Assembly: GCA_951804945.1 (NCBI GenBank)
Contig: OX638159.1
Location: 29,636,001 to 29,700,000 of the forward strand
Origin: Podarcis cretensis
Taxonomy: Eukaryota
Direction: 5' to 3'
DNA: 64,000 nucleotides
Shown here: positions 1,367 through 62,517 of the stretch, one piece after another
How the letters are laid out: the number at the start of each line of letters is the position of its first letter
Position numbering within the stretch: position 1 is the first letter of the stretch
Position numbers and translations under genes: made by a program
Notes under the pieces: generated by a model
Database searches by the model: none
What the model was told of the DNA's origin: nothing
The model's input: the letters and a program-made list of their open reading frames with translations, nothing else

Positions 1367-3865
1367 NNNNNNNNNNNNNNNNNNNNNNNNNNNNNNNNNN
1401 NNNNNNNNNNNNNNNNNNNNNNNNNNNNNNNNNNNNNNNNNNNNNNNNNNNNNNNNNNNNNNNNNNNNNNNNNNNNNNNNNNNNNNNNNNNNNNNNNGTA
1501 TCATATGACTTAAGCCACTGCCTTGGGCAGTGGAACTCTGTAGGGTCGTGCCCCCATGGGAACCCCCCTGCCCCACCCCTGCCACCACCAGGGTCATGTA
1601 GCTGCACCTTCCAGCCAAATATTCTGAGAATTATGCAAGATCTCATAAGATCTCACCAGAAGCAACCACGTGACCCCAGTAAGCGAGGCTTCAATGGGAA
1701 CAACTTCCTGTCTTGCCTCAGGTGGCAAAACAGGGTTCGCTCCTATTTCTTTCAAATTTTTAAAACCCACTTAAGATTGCTTCACATCATAAAAACTAAT
1801 CAAAATACAAAAGGGTCACCAATCTTAAGCCCAGCATCATGATACTAAATTCAAATCAAGTGATTGCAGTATAGCTAAACTGCTAGGGAAGGGAAGAATG
1901 GTGCTATATACAGGTAGCAAGAGGATGTGGTTTTCTGGATCCAAGCACCATGCAGATTCACTGACTTCTTACCATGCCCTTTGACAGCTGCTCATTCTTG
2001 CACTCGGTTAAATATGTTCAGTTATATAGGTCACCTCCACTATAGCTTTGCGGTGCTAAATATTTGCAGAAAAGCTGTAGAAATTAGTTTCTTGGAGATA
2101 TGTTTTAAATATTCAGATTACTGAAGTGTGGATTAGTGAAGTTTGGCTGTTACATTGATTTTATTTCTTAATGTTCCCTTATTTCTAGATAGTTTTGAAA
2201 TTTGAGAGGGGGAGAGTTGAATATTACTTGAAGATGTTGGCACCATAAATCTAATACTGCTGTGAGCTTAGTAGATGCATAAAACCAACTCATATTATGT
2301 CTCAGCATGAGTTTATATCTTCTAATTAGTACCACCATTTTATGTAGAGCACATGCTATGAAAGTTTGTTTGTCGTGTCAACAGAGACCAAAGGACATAC
2401 AGTAGTTCTCTGCTAGAATAAGAGGACTATGTGGAAACAAAAGGCTTGTACCCTAAGCAGTAGGTAATCAGAAAAGAATGTAAAAGAATTAAGTGCTGTT
2501 GTGGAGATAAAGTTATACCCATTTTGCAATGAGCATAGGTGGTTATCATGATATTATTTTTCTCATTATTAATTAGACTTCAGTAAAGTACTGTTCTTTA
2601 AAAAGTGAATGAAAACATTAAAAGCTTAAAAGCTTCTATTCTGACAATTGAAAAGTAAAATTTTATGATATTCAAATGCTAATCATATTACTTAGCAGAT
2701 GACTGAAGAAAGTAGTGTATTTTGAATAGAGGCATAAATTATAAATTGTAAACAGTGCATGGGGGATATATTGTAACTGCTTCTCATTTAAATTAAGACA
2801 GGGAGCTTTTTCTGAAACATATTATGTGACTTCATTAAGTTTTAAAATCCACTTTATAATGTTTTATTAAGATCTTTTGGCAACAGGCTACAAACTCCCA
2901 TGCTATAGCAGTTCAAAGTTGTATAAAGAACTTGGCTATAGCTCACGAGCACATTCATAAATTCCAATATTATTTCTACACTTTTCTGTGCTGTTATATA
3001 ATAAATGTACCTCTCTAATGCTGCTCTCCTTGCCCACAAATATGTTTTTGCTTTTTTAAAAACTAAAAAACATCTCAAACATTTACATGATCAATGTTTT
3101 TTGCTTGAGGGATAAAGTTTGCTCTTCCATAGACAAGTGAGAACATATTGATCATTTTATTCTATTTGCTATTTCTAAATTCAATATACCTCTTGAGTCG
3201 ATAAGCGAGATCGAGAGCATATTTTTTTTGTGTGTGCCTGCTTGTAGCTTGTTCTCAAGATTCAAGATACATTTTTGATTAATCANNNNNNNNNNNNNNN
3301 NNNNNNNNNNNNNNNNNNNNNNNNNNNNNNNNNNNNNNNNNNNNNNNNNNNNNNNNNNNNNNNNNNNNNNNNNNNNNNNNNNNNNNNNNNNNNNNNNNNN
3401 NNNNNNNNNNNNNNNNNNNNNNNNNNNNNNNNNNNNNNNNNNNNNNNNNNNNNNNNNNNNNNNNNNNNNNNNNNNNNNNNNNNNNNNNNNNNNNNNNTGA
3501 AAGAAATAGTGTATGTTTTAATTGAAACTTTTAAGACAAACTTTACTCTTCTTAATTTTACTCATTATTAATGCAGATGAATTCACTGCTTCTAGTGCCA
3601 TGTTAGCTCACTAACTTTGCTTCTTCTTACAGTTTCAAAAAAAATAATTTTGCCATATAAATTCCATTTTGTTATTTCTTTCTATGCTAATATTCATTTA
3701 ACATTGTCATCGTGCGAGAAGGAAACAAGGATGTTTTTGTTTTGTTTTTCTAGTTTCAATGCCCGTGGGGCTGAATTCTCAGTACAAACTAGAAGTTCCA
3801 ACTGTGGGATTGGAAGGAATTGTTGAACATTTTCATTTCACATTTGTCTTCAAAATAACAGTTCT

Positions 3866-5446
3866 GACTTCCAGGTCGGCGCCATCGCCGAATGGCGGAC
3901 TCCCTCCGAGCTCCGGAGGGAGTCGGCTGGGTAGGGGTCGGGTCCTGCCGTGCCGGCGATGCGGGGACCCTCAAAAACCATGGACTTGGTGACTTGGCGG
4001 GCACCGTTTGCGCCCCCCGACCCGCGAAGGAGCCTTTTTAAAGGCTGCGGAGCGGGTGACGGGGGGGTGTGGTGCTGTGAGTCCAATGCTTCCCCTGCCC
4101 AGCGAAGCCGCATGCCATTCGGCGGAGAGCAACTACTTCTTCTTTGAAAATTTCGGATTTGGACTAAAAGGAACAACCCGTGAGTAAATTGATTGGACTT
4201 AAAAGGGAAATTTGATCTTTGAATTTGGAGTGAGCGGGGGGAGTGCAAAAAGGAAGTCCGCCCCCCCCCCTGTTGTAGATGGCTCAACGCAAGGATTTGA
4301 CAACTAAGATCGAGAGATGAACTTGTTTACCTTTGACAGCTGTCAAAGTAGCTGTCAAAGCAGGAAAATAAAAGAGAACTTTGTTACGATGGCTTTGCTG
4401 GTTAGATTTGTTACAATTTGGACATAAATTATTGGAAATAAAGGCAACAAGTTATTTGACTTTTGGGTCTGATTTTGAAAGAAATTAAGTTACCATATTC
4501 CCTCTAGAGGGAGGCTGGGACATTGCAACAGTAGCAGCAAGTGGAAAAATACTATGAATTTGAGCAGGATCTGTTATCTCTTGGGAAAGCTGCAAAAACG
4601 AAGCATTATTTTGTCTACAGAGGTTTCTATACTAAAGGAGACAATGGATTTATCTATTGAAGAAAAGAAGGGACTTGACGCAAGTTATGTTCCTGAATAA
4701 CAAAAGCCTCTGTGGAGAACAAGAAGTTTCTGAATTAGAAGGTTTCTGCAGCAGAACAGGAAAAAGCAACCTGAGGAATAAGAGCTGGACCAAATTTGAA
4801 GCCGGAGTATTTGGAACATCCAGACTTTAAAAGGACCAAGAAATAGAATTTAAGTTAGACTCTTAAACATAGAGGTCTGGATGGAAGAACAATGACTTTT
4901 TCTGAGAGTTTTTTCGAGATTGGACTTTCTGAAATTAAAAGCTATCAAAAGACGGCAAAGTGGAGTTGAGATATAGACGTGGATACACCAGGCTGGCAGT
5001 AGACAATGGATGAACTTTGGGGATTGGAACCGGGGAATTGGGGGGGGGGGAGATTTGGAATCCAAAGGCTGTAAAATTATATATTATTTCTTTCTTTTCT
5101 TTTTTCATGTTTGTTGTTTGAAAATAGGGGAATTCGTGGAAGGGAAATGGGGTCGATCTTAGGGAATTATATAAAATATAAGGAGAAATGGTTCATTAAG
5201 ATAAATAAGATAAATTAATTTGGAATAAATGGGTTATTTAAAATTACAAATAAGGTTTTAAAATTTGGGGTAAGAATCTGTGGAATCAATTTAAGGGAAA
5301 TGGAATACAAGAGGGGGAGGGGGGGAAGTCTGGGAAAGATGCCACTGAAACCAAGTGTAAATCATATTTGTTTTTTCTTTCTTTCTTGCTATCTTTCCTT
5401 TTTATTCTGGAAAATTTTTAATAAATATTATTAAAAAAACAAAAAA
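3866..5446 (+). mobile_element. Non-autonomous L1-like retroelement (about 1.58 kb) with CpG-rich 5' end, poly(A) tail and TSD
   Basis: 17-bp direct repeat caaaataacagttctga at 3851-3867 and 5447-5463. GC/CpG-rich head (gacttccaggtcggcgccat...), AATAAA at 5420-5425 and an A-rich tail. No long ORF. Confidence 0.8.
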
Positions 5447-16480: not shown

Positions 16481-18836
16481 CTCTTCCTGGACATATGATT
16501 TCCAGTAAGCCTTTTCACTTCAAGATCTTTATCTAGTTGGCGGCAGCCAAGTTAGAGCCATGCACGATACAGATGTTTATTATGAATAAAATGCCTTCAG
16601 TGCCATAGTGTGCTTTCAAATGGGAGTGTAATATCACAAACACATATTTTGCAACAGGTTTTTTAAAAAACAACCTGTGAAATTTTCCATGAAAAATGTT
16701 CTGGGGGAGGGGATGACTTCATGTGAACTGTAGCAAATTTACACGCAATAAATAAATTAAATCAATAAATAAAGTTCCACAATAAATACCTGTCTGGAAC
16801 TACTACATTGGGCAAAGAAAGTGGAACCAAGGGTCTTTGGAAGAAAAACTAAACTTGGCAGAAGTCCTCCCAAGTACATTAGAGGAGCAGAGGGAAAGGA
16901 AAAGCATGCAAACCCAAAGCTTCATTCAGCTCACAGAGTCTTGTCCACTTAGTGCTAAACCATGGTTTAGTGTTGCATGTAAACTGGGCTACTGTTCTTC
17001 TGGCTCACTTCCAGCATCTAGTGAATGTAAATAAACATTTGTTATTGGTTTTTATATTTATATTTTTGCCTTTTCTTATAGTGAATTTGTGCTTTTTGTT
17101 TCCCAGTTTGTGCTCTTTTTCAATTTCCTCATGTGAGCACAATTTAAAAACAATTCCTCTTGCGATTCATAACTTCCTTAATTTGCGTTTTGTCTATGAG
17201 CATTCTTTGGCGCTTTTGAGTCTTTGCTGATGAGTCCTATAGATTGCTATTGAATCTGTATTATAGTTGTTTTATATAAACTACAAGCTTCGTAATGATA
17301 TTTCAACCTTCAGTACCTTCATTTTTTAGAAACTTCCCCTCCTGAATATTGATGAAGGAATATATTCCGCTCATATATGTATGATTGTGAAAGCACATTT
17401 GCACCTGATCTTGTGTACCGCTTAGGTTTAAATCAAGAATCACTTCTGCTCTTGGTGGTCCTTATTACCAAAATGTCATAAAACATCATTTATTATATCC
17501 AGAAATAACATATGAATTTACAATTTACAATTTATGCACTCATTTTTTAAACAGTTGAAGCCACTCATTAGTATTGCTTTTTCTACTTCAGCTACCTCCT
17601 TGGTTTATTTTTTACACCTCAAAATTAACATCGTGTTTTGGTGAGGGAGATTCTTACTTTAACCATAAGATTCTGCCAATAGAAGTTTGGAAAGAATTCC
17701 CGCCCCCCTTCAGATTTCTAACTTAATGGACTCTATACCTTCTTAGGATTTTAGAGGAACACTATCTTCAATAAACTTTCTCTATCCTTGTGTAGGTTTT
17801 AGATTTACTTTACTGCCAATACCCGATTAACAGTAGTCATGATGGACAGATATGAAACTAGAAAACAATGGAAACGATTTGTTAAATAGAAATACAGCTT
17901 GATTTAATTGAATTTATAGAAGGCTGTTGAAATCCATAGCTGTGTATCCATTAACACTGAAGTAGGCATTGTCACACTTTTTGAACTGTGACAAGCATCC
18001 AAGAACCATGAAACTAGTTCTATGAGCCCAGAGAAACATTAGATTTCTGTTCCTTGAACAGCATTTTCTCATGTTTTCTGGCAAACCGCTTTTGAAACTG
18101 AGGGAAGAATCAAAAGCAGCTTGTGATAGGATATGAAGGGGGTGTCAGGTGTCAAAGGAAAAAAACTTTACAATTTTATTCAGCTATCACAAGCCCCTTA
18201 CAAAACGCTATCCCAAGTAGCTGTTTAGATCCAAACATCTTTGAATTTGAAAAACAGATAAGTCATGAGCTATTTCATTTTAATAATATCAACCTGTTTG
18301 TACTGTAACAAAATGGTATTTGGCAGCTATCTATGAATACAAATATGTTTCATATCTATTATTATAGTACCTAATACACAAATATACCACTTTTCAGCAT
18401 ATTAACAACGCTTTGTGGCAATTTTCCTGAAAATATAGTTTATACATCTGTGAAGAGATGTAGATGAAATAATTATATGACAAAATAAAAATGCCATAGG
18501 TAACAAGCAGATTTGTTTATGAGTATAATAATCTTATTTACCATAATAACTAAACTCAAATATAAGTTATTTATAGGCCACATTTTCTGTTTTACTGCTC
18601 TAAAGAAGCACTTTTGACTCCTGAAACCAGTAGCATGAAAATTACAGCCCTGTTATATTGCAGGTGTACTATGTACTCTAAAAAGAAATAGACTGTGTAA
18701 ACCTTACAATACAGGTGAAACTCGAAAAATTGTGAATATTGTGAAAAGGTGCAGTAGCTATTCAATCCATAACACCTGCAATGGGTTCCTGAGCCTTTAA
18801 ATGGTCTCTCAGTCTGGTTCAGTAGGAAGCACAATC

Positions 18837-20134
18837 ATTGGGAAGGCTGCTGACCTGACAGTTGTGCAGAAAGCCATCACTGAGACCCTCCATAAGGAGG
18901 GAAAGCCTCAAAAGGTAATTGCAGAAGAAGCTGGATGTTCCCAAAGTGCTGTATCGAAGCACATTAATGGAAAGTTATGCGGAAGGGAAAAGTGTGGAAG
19001 AAAAAGGTGCACAAGCAGCAGGGATGACCGCAGCCTGGAGAGGATTGTCAGGAAAAGACCATTCAAACGTGTTGGGGACTTTCACAAGGAGTGGACTGAG
19101 GCTGGATTTAGTGCATCAAGAGCCACCACACACAGACGGATCCTGGAGATGGGCTTCAAATGTCGTATTCCTCTTGTCAAGCCGCTCCTGAACAAGAAAC
19201 AACGTCAGAAGCGTCTTACCTGAGCTAAAGAAAAAAAGAACTGGTCTGTTTCTCTGTGGTCCCAGTCCTCTTTTCTGATGAGAGCAACTTTTGCATCTCA
19301 TTTGGAAACCAAGGACCCAGAGTCTGGAGGAAGAATGGGGAGACACACAATGCCAGATGCTTGAAGTCCAGTGTGAAGTTTCCACAGTTTGTGTTTATTT
19401 CGGGAGCCATGTCATCAGCTGGTGTTGGGCCACTGTGCTTCATTAAGTCCAGGGTCAACGCAGCTGTCTACCAGGAGATTTTGGAGCACTTCATGCTTCC
19501 TTCCGCAGATGAGCTTTATGGAGATGCTGACTTCATTTTCCAGCAGGACTTGGCACCTGCCCAGACTGCCAAAAGTACCAAAACCTGGTTCAATGCCCAT
19601 GGGATTACTGTGCTTGATTGGCCAGCAAACTCGCCTGACCTGAACCCCATAGAGAATCTATAGGGCATTGCCAAGAGAAAGATGGGAGACATGAGACTGA
19701 GCAATGCAGAAGAGCTGAAGGCTGCTATTGAAGCATCCTGGTCTTCCATAACACCTCAGNNNNNNNNNNNNNNNNNNNNNNNNNNNNNNNNNNNNNNNNN
19801 NNNNNNNNNNNNNNNNNNNNNNNNNNNNNNNNNNNNNNNNNNNNNNNNNNNNNNNNNNNNNNNNNNNNNNNNNNNNNNNNNNNNNNNNNNNTGATATCTT
19901 GCTTTATCACTACCCGCAGGAGTCTCAAAGCGGCTAACATTCTCCTTTCCCTTCCTCCCCCACAACAAACACTCTGTGAGGTGAGTGGGGCTGAGAGACT
20001 TCAAAGAATTGTGACTGGCCCAAGGTCACCTAGCAGCTGCATGTGGAGGAGCGGAGACACGAACCTGGTTCCCCAGATTACAAGTCCGCGTTGAGGTAGT
20101 AATTGATGCAAAAGGGGCCCAAACCAAGTATTGA
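18837..20134 (+). pseudogene. Tc1 transposase pseudogene
   Basis: Paired-like HTH N-terminus (GKAADLTVVQK...CGRKRCTS), FSDES, QQDLAPA and WPANSPDLNPIENL, with 34 residues between the second D and the E. The C-terminus AKGAQTKY* ends at 20134. Lesions: probable ATG>ATT at 18837, TGA at 19221, 1-nt frameshift near 19262, TAG at 19661, and a SINE insertion plus gap at 19760-20086. Confidence 0.92.
19892..20086 (-). mobile_element. Squam3-type tRNA-derived SINE, 5'-truncated, nested in the Tc1 transposase
   Basis: The minus strand reads acttgtaatctggggaaccaggttcgtgtctccgctcctccacatgcagctgctaggtgaccttgggccagtcac...gttagccgctttgagactcc...gatatca. The tail runs into the N gap and the transposase frame resumes at 20087. 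Confidence 0.8.
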
Positions 20135-35572: not shown

Positions 35573-36923
35573 AGAGATTTAATCTGTGTTTTTGCAGGTG
35601 TGGGAGACCATCACCATAACCACATACATTTGGTTTATTGAAAGAGAGGCTTTATCTAAGTGGATATGAGTGTTTTAAGCAGAAAAAAGTTGTTTCTCAG
35701 TCTGTTCACTTGATTCTTGCTTGTAGAAGAGTGAAATGTCTGGCCATACAGGAAAGTGTACCTAATTAAGCAGCTGTCTTTTGGGAACAAGAAACACTGG
35801 AGAAAAGAAGTTACGGTACTACTTCTGTTTGAAAGGCACCCCAGCTTTCCTAAAACAAGGTCACATATATTGCTGCCTGAGAGTGCCTTGCTAATCAAGC
35901 CACTTAAGTGTTCAGCTTCCCAAGGTTCTGTTCCATCAAAAATTGGGAATATAAACATAATAGGATGATCAGACTGCCAAAGGGCATTACTCATACATCC
36001 TTACTCTTTGCAGACAAGATTTTTGCATGTTCAGCTTGTCAAGGATCTGCATCTGCCAAAATATCTGTTACTATGTAACTGTTGCAGGTATAGGAGAGTC
36101 TCTGCCCCTGCCCCTAGTAGATTAGGATATTAGATTTGGACCAATGAGGCATGTATCCACGAAGTCTCCCACGTTTTCTCTTAAGTTTATTTCAGAACTA
36201 TTAGCTTTCAGACCTGATTTCCTCTCTATAAAATGTGAATAACTGTGTAGGTTTGTTGTAAGGGCAGTATCTTGAACTTTAAAACAAATGAAAATGAAAA
36301 TAATTAATCCCATTGGGAATGCTCTAAATGGTTGGTGGAGAAAAGAGGCAGACAGGATACTTCGTACCAAACTGGAATCCTACCCCTTTTCAGTGAGAGC
36401 CCTTTTCCTGTCTTAAGGCTGGTTAACAACTCCTTTCCCCTCCCTGGGGCTTAATTTGAGTCAAGAGTTCAGAAGCTCTTTTCAGTGCCAAGCTGCAGGC
36501 CTGGTGAAGCATGTGCAGAATGCTCCTCTCGCAGTTGTGAGTTGCCACAATCAGCCTTGGCACGGGCAGCCTGGATGAGAGGGCAGGCCTTGCGGGCTGC
36601 CAGCCTTCAGAAAACGCCTCTCCCGTGCCCTGACGGAGAGCCTAACCTTTCACAGCCCCAGGCCTGGCTGCGCGCTTACGCAGAACAAGCAAGGCCCCCT
36701 TGATGCCACGGGCATGCACTCCCGGCTCAGGGTGCGCAGGATTTCAGCCTGGGCGCCCTTTCGCCAAGAAGGGGGGATCCGGGAGGGCGGGGCGAAGCTG
36801 CCTTGGCCGCCGCCTGCGTCCCGCTCCTCCACTTGACCCCTGCGGCTCGCTGTCGTCGGGGGGCGGAGTGTCTTCCTCCCGCTCCCCCTCCTCCCCCTCC
36901 CTTCCCTCCGCCCGAGTCGCAGG

Positions 36924-36960
36924 CAGTGACGCTGTGCTTCTCCTTCCTTGTGTGTTGCAG
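36924..36960 (+). promoter_or_regulatory. 3' splice site: candidate branch point (CAGTGAC), polypyrimidine tract, AG at 36959-36960
   Basis: cagtgacgctgtgcttctccttccttgtgtgttgcag lies directly before the FAM172A-like reading frame. Confidence 0.85.
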
Positions 36961-37103
36961 GCACGGAGCGGCACGAGCTGACCTCGTGGAAGAGCTACGC
37001 GTCGATCTTCCGCTTCTTCGGCGACGCCATGGAGGCGAAGAGCAGCTCGGGCAAAGCGGCTCCGACGCGCCGCTCGCAGCGGATCCGCTACGAGGAGCTG
37101 TAA
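36961..37103 (+). CDS. FAM172A: Terminal coding exon of FAM172A/ARB2A (Arb2-domain, AGO2-interacting cotranscriptional regulator); the first 2 nt complete an upstream Gly codon
   Basis: Polypyrimidine tract and TGCAG acceptor end at 36960. The frame reads (G)[46 protein letters not shown], TAA at 37101-37103. This is colinear, without indels, with the human FAM172A C-terminus as I recall it ([47 protein letters not shown]). Confidence 0.93.
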
Positions 37104-37319
37104 CCGGGCGGGAGGCGGGCGGGCGGGAGCCGGCGCCTGCTTGCCTGCCTGCCTGCCTGCCTTCCCGCCTGCGCGTCTGGGCGGCGGCGCTCGGCAGTCC
37201 CAGCCCCTCATTAGATTGTTTTCTTCCTAGAGCACAGGGTCGCCGTGTCTACATCTAAGTAGCGTTTTGCATTATTTCTAGATGAGTGCAGCTGTCAAAG
37301 CAATATGGGTTCACTGGTT

Positions 37320-37415
37320 GTGCTTCCTGTGGGCTGCGGCGGGGATTTCGGGCTGCCCATCAGCGCGCAGATTAAGGCTGACAGCAGCACCGCACCGCGC
37401 AGCCTGGTGCAGCTC
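37320..37415 (+). ncRNA. Hairpin positionally and partly sequence-orthologous to human MIR2277; not established as a miRNA here
   Basis: Begins GTGCTTCCTG, contains TCAGCGC.CA.ATTAAGGCTGACAGC and ends AGCTC, as in the recalled hsa-mir-2277 precursor in the FAM172A 3'UTR. Manual folding gives about 23 bp. Confidence 0.5.
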
Positions 37416-39862
37416 TAATTGCCCTGACAGAGCCCGGCACCGAGCTGATGGCGGGCCGACGCGGCGCCCCCCGGGTCCTAGCGCCCTGCCCTTCCTCGCC
37501 CCTCCCCGCCGTCGGAGCTCACATTTAGTTCGCCTTGATTTTAATGGTGGACTTCCCAAGTCTCGCTAACCAAGGTCCCGCCCACGCGTTAGGCTCTGTA
37601 ATGATTTCCCGCAAACGCTTTGGGCGGTGTTTTTTAAAATAATAATAATAATAATAAAATGCTTCCGTGCTTTTTAAATTCAGGGGCTCTAAGAAACTGT
37701 ATTGACACAATGGTAGCGATCCTAAGCCCTGCACGTCTATGAGACTTACGTGTCGCGTCAATGTGTTTAGGATGCGCGTGTAACTCCAGCAATGGCTATT
37801 TTACTCTTTCTACTTCAGGCTGCGGAGAGGCTGTGCCACCCAAACTGAAACCATACATTTAATCAGTGGGTGCTTTGTTTGGTGTTTATTAATGAGGAAG
37901 ACTTGAGCGACTTCAGCAAATCTGAACATGGAAAGAGGACTTAATTTTACTTCCAAATGCGCCAGAACTACCGAGCGCTCTTTGCTTGTGTGGTTCCTCG
38001 GGAGTTTGCTGAGTCATTTTAAAAAAAACCTAAAAGGATGTTTTAGCGACAAATGTAATATAGAGCAATTAATACCAGTATTTAAAATGTTGCTTCTAAT
38101 ACTTGGTTGAAACGTTTATTTTTTATTCTAACAGAATCTCTATTTTGTGACAAATCAGATAGCGAAGAATTTTTTTAAAGATCCTGGGCGCTCCCAGGAC
38201 GCCGCCTCTCCGCCCTGGCCTCCCGGTTCGAGGCCGGGCAGCAGAGTTTTCCATTCCTTGCTGAAACAGGGTCCGCCTTTGCCGGGAGGGGCGATTTCCC
38301 CCCTCCCTGCCGAAAGATCTTTTTTCTCACTCAGTCTGTTGAACTCCTGAAGCCAGTTTCGTTTTACCTTCACCGTCTGGTGACACTGTGAAATATTAAT
38401 AGCAAAAAAGAAAGAAAGAAAAGAAGCATGTATTACTGATGTTGCTAATCACTTTTGTTATAAGCAAGAGGACGTCGTTTTTACATTCCTTAAATTCCTC
38501 ATGGCTTTCAATGAGTCCTGACTCTTTATAATTCCACGCAGACCTAAAAGTCCATCTGTTGTCACCAAGTGTTTCCAGTTACCATGATGCTCAAATAGGC
38601 TCTGCCTTCCACCCCAAACCGCAAATTCTCGGGCTTCTAAGCTCCATACTCGTGGCCAGTGTGGATAAAAGGAGTGGGGTCCCTATGGGCCTCATCTCAC
38701 ACACCCCAAAGCTCTACCCGACCCGGACTCCAAGCCTGGGGCACCCTCTCCACCTTCTCTGCCAGGCCACGAGGCTCAGCTGACTGCCGGGAGTGGCTGC
38801 CCTGCGCGCGGCTTGCGCAGAGGGATCCCCAGCGGACGGCGACCCGGCCTCTTCCAGAGCAGCAGCGCCTGGCTGGTGCTCGAGTAGGCGCGCCGGGGCA
38901 CCAAGGAGCGTTTGAACGTTTCCTGGCCTCCCCTCTCAGATGTTACCCGAGCGAAAGAGGGGGTCACATTTCATCTCATGCATGCATTCAGTGGCTGGGC
39001 GATTTCGTTAGATACCACCACCAGCTCGTTTGAAAGGGAAGCTTTTGGGATTTCAGAACAGACGTGTTGGCTCACGTCTTTGAAAGCGCTGCTGTTAAGA
39101 TTATCCCAAAGGGCGCAATTCGGGTTAAGGGGCCCTGTCGGTGCAAAGTGGAGAGAGAGAGAGACAAGGGCTTTCCCTTCCATCGGAAACCTGCCAGCGC
39201 CATCTCTCTGGGGGCAGATTCAAAGCCAGAGTCAAGTGGCTCCAAGTGCAGAGGTGAAGGTGGCCTGTCTCGGCGCGTCCGCTTCCTCGCCTGACCTCTT
39301 CTGCTCTGTGAAGGGGTGACCTTTCAGACTGGCAAGTTGCACACCTACTCTTCTGCACAGGGAGAATGATCGAGCCATAGCCGGGCAGGCTTGGGCAGGA
39401 ATAGTCTCCTGATCGCTTCCCTGGTGACCATCTCCCCCACCTGATGGTCCCGGTCTCCTGTTTCCCCTTTCTCTGGAACTGCTCCTCTCTCTCTCTCACC
39501 CGCCTGGGCTCACCTTAGCGTCAGCTTCAGGGTGGTAGACGGTCGACCTGGTCTTTTTTCTTATCCATGCTTTTTCTTAGCTGTGATCTTGTGGGCTTTT
39601 CCCACAGCAACCCTTAGACCTTACCCTGTCTTTTGTGAAAGCCTCTGGGGCTCTGCAAAGTGCCAAATCTCACCAAATGAGTTTTTTTCCTCCTCTCCAA
39701 GTGTCACGGTTGAGGTTTCTACTCCTTCCAGTGTGGTCCCACCAGCCCCTTGCTCTGTATCTCGTGCCGTTGCCTGGGTTGTGTTCTCGCTGCTTCTGGA
39801 CCCAACTGTAAAGCACACAGGGAGCTGTTAAAAGAGTTGTCTCTTTCTGTTTACACTGAACC

Positions 39863-61209: not shown

Positions 61210-62517
61210 GGAGAGACGTTCCTACCTCCTTCTCTAAACAGAGGGATCGATAGCTGACCCCACGGTTTGGCCAGTTCTTTATTTATCTGCCCGAGCAATG
61301 ATATTATCAGCCTTAAACGTTATATACAGCAAATGTCTTCCTAAATCAACACACAAGGATATCTCCCAGCAGCCAAGCTGCTCTGCCTTCAAGAAGTTCG
61401 CTCTGCCTCTTGCCCTCTCCTCCGCTTTCCACAACAACCGGGGCCCGTTTTACACCCCGTAGTTTTCAACGGGATCCTCTGTTTGAAGCTTGATGGTGGG
61501 CTCTGCAGCCAAGAGGTTGTAGATACACGATTGTACAACCCCGCTTGCTGTTTCTTCCAGGGATTCGCTTGTCAGCCTGGCTGGGCTGCTTAAAGGCTGC
61601 TCAACGCTATCCCTTTTTTTGTAATGGGGTTGGGGAGGAGATCTAATTTCCCACTGTCCTCTCTGTTAATTGCTTTCTTTCCTTGCAATTATATGTATAA
61701 ACCGATTTGCTCCTTTCCACGTTATGGCTTTGTGATTCTAATGCAAACCACTTGAGGGGGTTTGGGGGTGGGGAGAGAAGAGACCAGCCATCTCCCCCCA
61801 CCACACACAGGCAAAATGCATCCCACCCCTTCTTAGTCGTGAGAAGATGCGGCGGTCCTTAGGGCTGCAGTGCATCTCAGTCTTACTTGGGAGTAGATCC
61901 CACGGCATTTAGCAGGATGTGCTTCTGAGCAAGGCGGGCAACACTTATTTTCAAATGTATGGCAGCCAACCAGATCGGGGCCTTCCGGTGAAATTCACCA
62001 TACCCAGAAATTTGACCCAACACCGAATTGCGCCGGCATGGTCAGACAAAGGATGGGGACCCTCAGGGCAGATCATCCGCCAGTCCTACTCCCCATTCAC
62101 ATTCATCTCCCTTGGCTCCCTCTACAGGTGGCTGCCCTTGGCACCAGAGGAACAGAGGTGCCCATGCGGACGCCCCTAGTTGATCTAGCAAATCGCTCCT
62201 TCCTTTACCCCTTCTGCCAGCATGGCCCACTGGAGAATCCCAGCCCATTTTATTCCACTTGTTTCTGCAACCTTGACAAGGGTGCAACGCTAGGTGCGCG
62301 TTTCAAGCCCTGAGTTGTAGGCAAAATGACTGGCAAAGCCATCCCCACCGAGCTCAATGGAGCTCATTCGGAGTGCTCGCCATTGCCGACTCCGTGGGAA
62401 GGCAGCGGGGTAAGAGAGGCTGAGAGTCCGGCTGAAGTCCTTGGAGGGGCTTCCGCCAACTTCCAAGCCTCAGAGTGGGTGGAAGGCGAGAGGGGAGCGG
62501 AGAACGTGACACAGCTC

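Follow-up and report, generated by a model that had tools for sequence, protein, structure and literature searches.

A conserved FAM172A 3' UTR element at the position of human MIR2277 is a candidate NR2F1 enhancer without a conserved pre-miRNA-sized hairpin

Human hsa-mir-2277 is listed in the sense orientation in the 3' UTR of ARB2A (PMC12465437, supplement file 2). Its first description, as C5orf21 locus 41039, gave 3 reads and a phastCons score of 0.46 (PMC2702338), and the human MirGeneDB table in supplement file 4 of PMC12465437 does not list it. The stem of a pri-miRNA measures 35 ± 1 bp, and non-miRNA Drosha substrates, in which the usual motifs are missing as well, measure ∼26 bp (PMC10954719). 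The host gene lies in the regulatory neighborhood of NR2F1. A cluster of 67 UCNE is described for ANKRD32/FAM172A/MCTP1/NR2F1 (PMC3436827), and conserved open chromatin 3' of nr2f1a reaches fam172a, with four active 3' enhancers (PMC11563408). In the latter study five of the seven tested regions were active and two inactive, 3'reg4 being active in the eye, nasal pits, and first arch. In the mouse, deletions indicate that distal enhancers in the domain control Nr2f1 (PMC11459158). NR2F1 is dosage-sensitive, and patient deletions often take in FAM172A and MIR2277 (PMC9024734).

The window, i.e. the whole 64-kb stretch of Podarcis cretensis DNA that was analyzed, contains a single exon of the FAM172A/ARB2A protein. 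The features that define the 3' end of this gene are the following.

36961..37103, + strand: last coding exon of FAM172A/ARB2A, with acceptor AG at 36959-36960 and stop codon TAA at 37101-37103
36501..37500, no strand: CpG island over the last FAM172A exon and proximal 3' UTR (GC 0.66, CpG observed/expected 0.66-0.94)
37653..37658, + strand: first AATAAA after the FAM172A stop, a likely and presumably used poly(A) signal

The frame at 36963-37100 encodes the C terminus of FAM172A/ARB2A, which shares 93% identity with a python protein and 91% with that of Rhineura. A preliminary description of this DNA had reported a hairpin orthologous to MIR2277 in the FAM172A 3' UTR, about 230 nt after the stop codon. 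Both placements hold, the host gene by the python match and the ARB2A 3' UTR listing of hsa-mir-2277, and the distance because helix 1 of the hairpin begins 229 nt past the stop at 37101-37103. Several other observations concern the gene and its surroundings. In Anolis FAM172A proteins (P0007-P0009) the part encoded by the last exon has an insertion rich in Gly/Ser/Asn, which is absent from other squamates, and a broken Tc1/mariner-type transposase (Pfam HTH_Tnp_Tc3_2 and DDE_3) lies in the last FAM172A intron at 18801-19663 (+). Past the last exon (36000-64000), the GC content goes up from ∼0.37 to ∼0.50 with several CpG-rich patches, as is expected in the flank of a developmental regulator.

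Orthologues came from a protein scan of metagenome contigs, in which 153 candidate stretches reduced to two loci, both of which were used (last exon and UTR). The comparison comprises three sequences, the window and the orthologues L001 and L002, each of the latter being a single contig whose taxon is deduced from its sequence. L001, the C terminus of which is 87% identical to a parrot protein, is taken as bird-like, or archosaur at least. L002, which has a divergent acidic insertion and a protein matching just one unnamed protein (79%), appears to be teleost-like (hereafter fish-like). In the protein scan of genomes, four of 80 candidates were weak streptococcal matches, which were dropped as spurious, and none of 118 candidates was retained from the scan of viral contigs. 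Exact-pattern scans returned no loci in metagenome contigs, prokaryote genomes, or viral contigs; L001 and L002 differ from the pattern. Among the matches listed for sequencing runs, 18 of 24 rows had at least half of the 23 words (four at 1.00, from one organism, and 14 at 0.52, from nine others); no RNA run was among those listed, and the rows carry no weight in the readings below.

Alignment of the three UTRs delimits a conserved element that is considerably longer than the hairpin.

37198..37454, no strand: conserved non-coding element in the FAM172A 3' UTR, by blastn to L001 and L002
37229..37338, no strand: most conserved block, identical at 101/110 positions to L001 and 90/110 to L002, lying before the hairpin save for its last 7 nt

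As assessed by blastn, the element is 81% identical to L001 over 258 columns (37198-37454) and 76% identical to L002 over 225 columns (37229-37450). Local alignment scores of the UTRs are 290 (L001) and 172 (L002), against shuffled maxima of 28 and 31. Between L001 and the window, 171 of 188 positions are identical in the UTR at 37198-37385, but only 101 of 141 in the coding exon. The stretch is thus a conserved non-coding element in the usual sense, i.e. non-coding, better conserved than the adjacent coding exon, and reaching the fish-like L002; it is probably already present in conserved-element catalogues. It is sited 95-350 nt past the FAM172A stop, before the first AATAAA, and also lies past the stop in both orthologues. 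If the poly(A) signal at 37653..37658 is used, the element would sit within the mRNA.

Within this element lies the hairpin of the preliminary description.

37332..37404, + strand: 23-bp hairpin; the basal 10 pairs are impossible in L001 (3' arm deleted) and 9 of 23 are paired in L002

Its geometry was drawn correctly, as all five helices are exact Watson-Crick complements around a 12-nt loop. When the 96 nt are folded alone, helix pair probabilities are 0.95-1.0, with one pair at 0.5, and the hairpin in this squamate has 23 (centroid) to 29 (MFE) pairs with a 6x2 internal loop. For the 96 nt as stated, the comparison with shuffled controls that had been proposed gave no sign of unusual stability, with a z of -0.47 and 57 of 200 shuffles equally good. 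This value varies with the boundaries, from -2.7 to -2.9 when trimmed to the stem to -0.9 and -1.2 in wider cuts. The reverse strand folds about equally well by shuffle z, and a 75-nt folding window with z ≤ -2.76 is present in 12 of the window's 83 GC-rich tiles (25 shuffles per tile), these 12 including the reported hairpin itself and at least one simple-repeat artifact. When 270-580 nt of the UTR are folded together, the probability of the apical helix is 0.08, another fold being preferred there, and in sliding windows it is 0.17-0.57. Rfam found no gathering hits in the whole 64 kb, and mir-2277 is absent among its six weak matches (E 3.8-8.5). With 23-29 pairs, the hairpin falls short of the ∼35-bp stem of a conserved miRNA gene, and it is devoid of a basal UG, an apical UGU/GUG, and a correctly spaced CNNC (16-18 nt downstream), as judged with cut sites placed by means of the human matures in print, the motifs themselves being optional. 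Nearby, right after the stop, GC-rich 4-nt repeats at 37105-37172 (+) form a predicted hairpin with z of about -3 to -4, stronger than the reported one; the equivalent in L001 is an A-rich tract, so the repeat hairpin looks lineage-specific.

The long stem is not kept in either orthologue. Missing from L001 are 22 nt with the 3' strands of both helix 1 and helix 2, which leaves 12 pairs kept, one broken, and 10 gapped. The 5' strand of helix 1 is nevertheless kept at 7/7 positions, which means that this strand is conserved without its deleted partner. Either a lineage-specific event or a fault in the assembly could account for the deletion. The deletion corresponds, in this single case, to about two DNA turns (L001 3450-3451 versus window 37393-37414), and a loss of this length would leave the TGACAG and CTAATTG blocks in unchanged helical phase to each other. 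In L002 as aligned, 9 of 23 pairs form and 14 are broken, and each arm refolds on itself. Its basal helix can form five of seven pairs, three of them as G-U, and four apical pairs are possible with a one-base shift, the apical helix having a probability of 0.01-0.19 in context. Across the three sequences, the stem is invariant at 18/46 positions, the loop at 8/12, and the flanks at 68/85 (stem versus flank, Fisher p 6e-6, with positions that are not independent). The pattern of mature arms conserved above the loop is therefore not seen. The proposed covariation check yielded a score of 0.188 versus 0.174 for shuffled alignments, 204 of 500 being as high, although three sequences give it little power, and RNAalifold on the same three did not recover the hairpin. 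The claim that the fold had been retained is thus contradicted by both orthologues. What the preliminary description had named as favoring an enhancer is what we found, i.e. the basal stem is lost in the bird-like L001 and the loop-side motifs and flanks are conserved as far as the fish-like L002. The hairpin occupies the variable, GC-rich center of a conserved element of ∼250 bp and is no conserved pre-miRNA-sized structure.

Locus 41039 is taken here to be miR-2277-3p. Aligned by hand to the window, the printed human 5p (PMC5482150) matches at 9/12 positions in 37350-37361 and 15/24 in 37338-37361, and the printed 3p (PMC2702338) at 7/7 positions in 37379-37385 and 9/21 overall. The equivalence with MIR2277 therefore stands for gene, position, and likely orthology, which are supported by the ARB2A 3' UTR listing and the mature matches, but not for the retention of a long fold. 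Likewise, the arms have changed as described, except that nt 1-7 of the human 3p show no difference. These 7 nt are the TGACAG block, which is also kept in L002, so the shared letters need no miRNA explanation. When the 16 pairs between the printed human matures are mapped ungapped by hand, with an uncertain 3' mapping (9/21), the window keeps nine and breaks seven; of nine changed pairs, two are kept, by two-sided change. The end of the human 5p pairs with nt 2 of the 3p, which leaves no 2-nt overhang (by hand). The 15-nt loop-side core is not printed in any main text searched, and a single paper was listed as naming miR-2277 together with FAM172A.

If the hairpin varies, what is conserved around it? 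Outside the variable spacers, the element is made of short motif blocks, two of which combine a homeodomain-like core with a TALE-like site.

37369..37384, + strand: homeodomain-like GATTA, then TALE-like TGACAG; AAGGCTGACAG is invariant in the three sequences, and ATTA is changed in L001
37415..37430, + strand: second homeodomain-like and TALE-like pair; CTAATTG is invariant in the three sequences, and TGACA is present in the window and L002 but changed in L001

We assume that TGACAG is a TALE (MEIS/PREP-type) site, that TAAT cores are homeodomain sites, and that TTTGCAT is POU-like. In the most conserved block, TTTGCAT (37266-72), ATTA (37271-74), and TGTCA (37293-97) are each invariant in the three sequences. 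Two of three TGACA sites are common to all (TGTCA at 37293 and TGACAG at 37379) and the third, at 37425, is in two sequences. Similarly, two of four TAAT/ATTA cores (ATTA at 37271 and TAAT at 37416) are shared by every sequence and two (ATTA at 37371 and 37210) by two, and the single TTTGCAT is invariant; these counts are of consensus strings, not scored matrices. In L001 the ATTA core at 37371 and the TGACA at 37425 are gone, and L002 is without the upstream ATTA and the SOX-like sites. A homeodomain-like core is found 3-4 bp ahead of a TALE-like site twice, and TAAT and TGACA motifs occur in both orientations. The three TGACAG sites within 140 bp, in both orientations, form one of only two such clusters among 37 sites in the 64 kb. 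The other triple cluster (4334-4357) lies in a CpG-rich patch at 3856-4360, which has folding windows with z down to -6.5 and is possibly the 5' end of a repeat element. Invariant blocks are the AT-richer motif stretches, and the CpG-rich spacers between them vary. The most conserved block also contains a weak AT-rich hairpin at 37252-37284 (+), which we do not regard as a conserved structure, given z of -0.3, -0.5, and +1.1 and 3/13 pairs broken in L002. It may be the EvoFold prediction reported ∼75 bases to one side or the other of the miR-2277 locus (PMC2702338).

The window also contains a landmark of the NR2F1 regulatory region.

61269..61315, within 61250-61370, - strand: orthologue of the zebrafish nr2f1a atrial enhancer 3'reg1, by enhancer primer stretches

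The 3'reg1 primer stretches match 61269-61315 at 19/20 positions (reached in 0/100 shuffles) and 15/18 positions (14/100 shuffles), 24 kb from the UTR element. This orthologue places the window within the NR2F1 3' regulatory region, and NR2F1 itself, which is outside the window, should lie past its right end on the minus strand. The element is thus part of a cluster around a developmental regulator, as indicated by the 3'reg1 orthologue and the published cluster, and it may or may not correspond to zebrafish 3'reg4. The mouse interval mm10 chr13:77.894-78.323 Mb presumably holds the 3' end of Fam172a. None of the 35 VISTA regions in Dataset S1 of PMC11459158 is within it.

Taken together, these findings lead us to favor, with moderate confidence, a role of the conserved 3' UTR element as DNA, as a candidate enhancer of the adjacent NR2F1. 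The sequence evidence agrees best with the fallback offered by the preliminary description, in which the GC-rich fold is incidental to a DNA enhancer, the motif blocks being conserved and the long stem lost. This reading draws on the depth and pattern of conservation (blocks shared with L001 and L002, varying spacers, a long stem that is not kept), on the 5' strand conserved without its partner together with the negative RNAalifold and covariation results, and on the TGACAG cluster, the nearby 3'reg1 orthologue, and the published NR2F1 element cluster. The invariant blocks would be bound by TALE (MEIS/PREP-type), homeodomain, and POU-type factors, and the bound element would contact the NR2F1 promoter inside its regulatory block. 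GC-rich spacers around the short inverted repeat TCAGC/GCTGA may give rise to lineage-specific hairpins, one of which, in humans, would yield the few reads annotated as miR-2277, a weak by-product. The 3 reads, the phastCons of 0.46, and the missing MirGeneDB row suggest this last step. Against the enhancer reading count the motif losses in L001 and L002, the naming of the motifs by consensus strings, the two of seven conserved regions that were inactive in PMC11563408, and the location of NR2F1 outside the window.

The site of the element past the stop and before the first AATAAA also counts against the enhancer reading, because it makes RNA-level selection possible. It would suit a linear RNA element on the FAM172A mRNA, with protein or miRNA sites acting on stability, translation, or 3' end choice and no conserved structure. 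Fish-deep 3' UTR blocks often act on RNA, but more than 100 near-contiguous conserved bases are more than seed sites of 7-8 nt explain, and AGCAATA, which we take to be miR-137-like and which is the sole seed-like site checked, is broken in L001. The TGACA/TAAT motifs in both orientations and the location in a known NR2F1 element cluster speak against it as well, and we regard a linear RNA element as rather unlikely. A different function in DNA, as a silencer, a Polycomb-recruiting CpG element, or an antisense promoter in the NR2F1 domain, is highly doubtful. Although the element lies within a CpG island over a gene 3' end and NR2F1 is reported to be bivalent and under Polycomb control (PMC3905905), it is the AT-richer motifs that are invariant, not the CpG-rich spacers, and the fish-like UTR keeps the motifs. 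We give very little credence to an amniote-wide, pre-miRNA-sized Microprocessor hairpin that, like those of the DGCR8 mRNA, would feed back on an AGO2 partner. This proposal of the preliminary description is largely refuted for amniotes overall by the z of -0.47, the missing basal stem in L001, and the refolding in L002; in addition, the fold is unfavored in context, 7/16 human-mature pairs are broken in the window, only 2/9 changed pairs are kept, basal UG, apical UGU/GUG, and spaced CNNC are absent, and the human 5p/3p are without a 2-nt overhang. These points outweigh, in our opinion, the 23-29 pairs in the squamate (near the ∼26 bp of non-miRNA Drosha substrates), the human reads from both arms, the reported fall of miR-2277-5p under PLK1 inhibitors (PMC10531876), and the published binding of FAM172A to AGO2 (PMC10205598).

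A shorter structure deserves separate consideration.

37349..37392, + strand: upper 44-nt hairpin, predicted in the window and L001 with 10 shared pairs, absent in L002

Its stability in both amniotes, with 12 of 13 formable pairs kept in L001, counts against the enhancer reading and leaves part of the claim of an amniote-wide structure standing, i.e. a short upper hairpin in both amniotes but not a pre-miRNA-sized one. The z is -3.0 in the window and -3.7 in L001 (0/200 shuffles each) versus -0.5 in L002, with bounds chosen after seeing the fold. In L001, four changed pairs became three G-U and one broken pair, and two further differences extend the apical helix. Under a null of eight random substitutions from the window to L001, the stability of L001 was reached in 0.1-0.3% of trials; under the same null from L001 to the window the figure is 8-12%, and at least 10 pairs are kept in 9-40% of trials. 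The printed human matures, which keep the apical pairs (by hand), have the L001 letter at three of eight differing sites (37351, 37359, and 37386, by hand), which makes the squamate the likely derived copy at these sites; two of its changes there break pairs. There is no two-sided pair change between the window and L001, the minus strand folds too (z -2.4 and -2.1), and the apical helix of L002 is improbable in context. This pattern fits a weakly held or drifting hairpin. A dual use of the sequence, compatible with the enhancer reading, would add to the DNA element a short ∼44-nt amniote hairpin that was lengthened in humans to pre-miR-2277; considering its post hoc bounds and the evidence on both sides, we find this unlikely. 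The corresponding history is likewise improbable: an enhancer dating back at least to the origin of bony vertebrates would contain an inverted repeat that became a selected ∼44-nt amniote hairpin in FAM172A and then, in humans, the Drosha substrate miR-2277. If true, it would allow the origin of a microRNA in an enhancer to be traced, within the mRNA that encodes an AGO2 partner.

Under the enhancer reading, the proposed amniote-wide Microprocessor hairpin gives way to a candidate regulatory element of NR2F1 within a neighbor's 3' UTR, a place that enhancer surveys can skip. NR2F1 might therefore be what mediates variants or phenotypes now assigned to MIR2277 or to the UTR of FAM172A. Conserved elements around NR2F1 are already well known, and a specialist would find little surprise here.

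How does the locus compare with known systems? It shares host UTR and strand with hsa-mir-2277 (miRBase MI0011284), to the printed matures of which its apical part can be aligned by hand, but the 5p seed differs, only nt 1-7 of the 3p are shared, the long stem is not kept in L001/L002, and Rfam has no match. It resembles the DGCR8 mRNA hairpins (mir-1306 and mir-3618) in being a hairpin in the mRNA of a gene linked to small-RNA machinery, and non-canonical Drosha substrates in stem length, which falls in their range; it differs from both in that its fold is not conserved in orthologues and is unfavored in context. Although it overlaps a transcribed 3' UTR and is a candidate by sequence, the element resembles those of the NR2F1 block (the UCNE cluster, 3'reg1-4, and VISTA hs271 and hs1172), with which it shares the locus, a fish-like depth of conservation, the block-and-spacer pattern, and the homeodomain- and TALE-like motifs.
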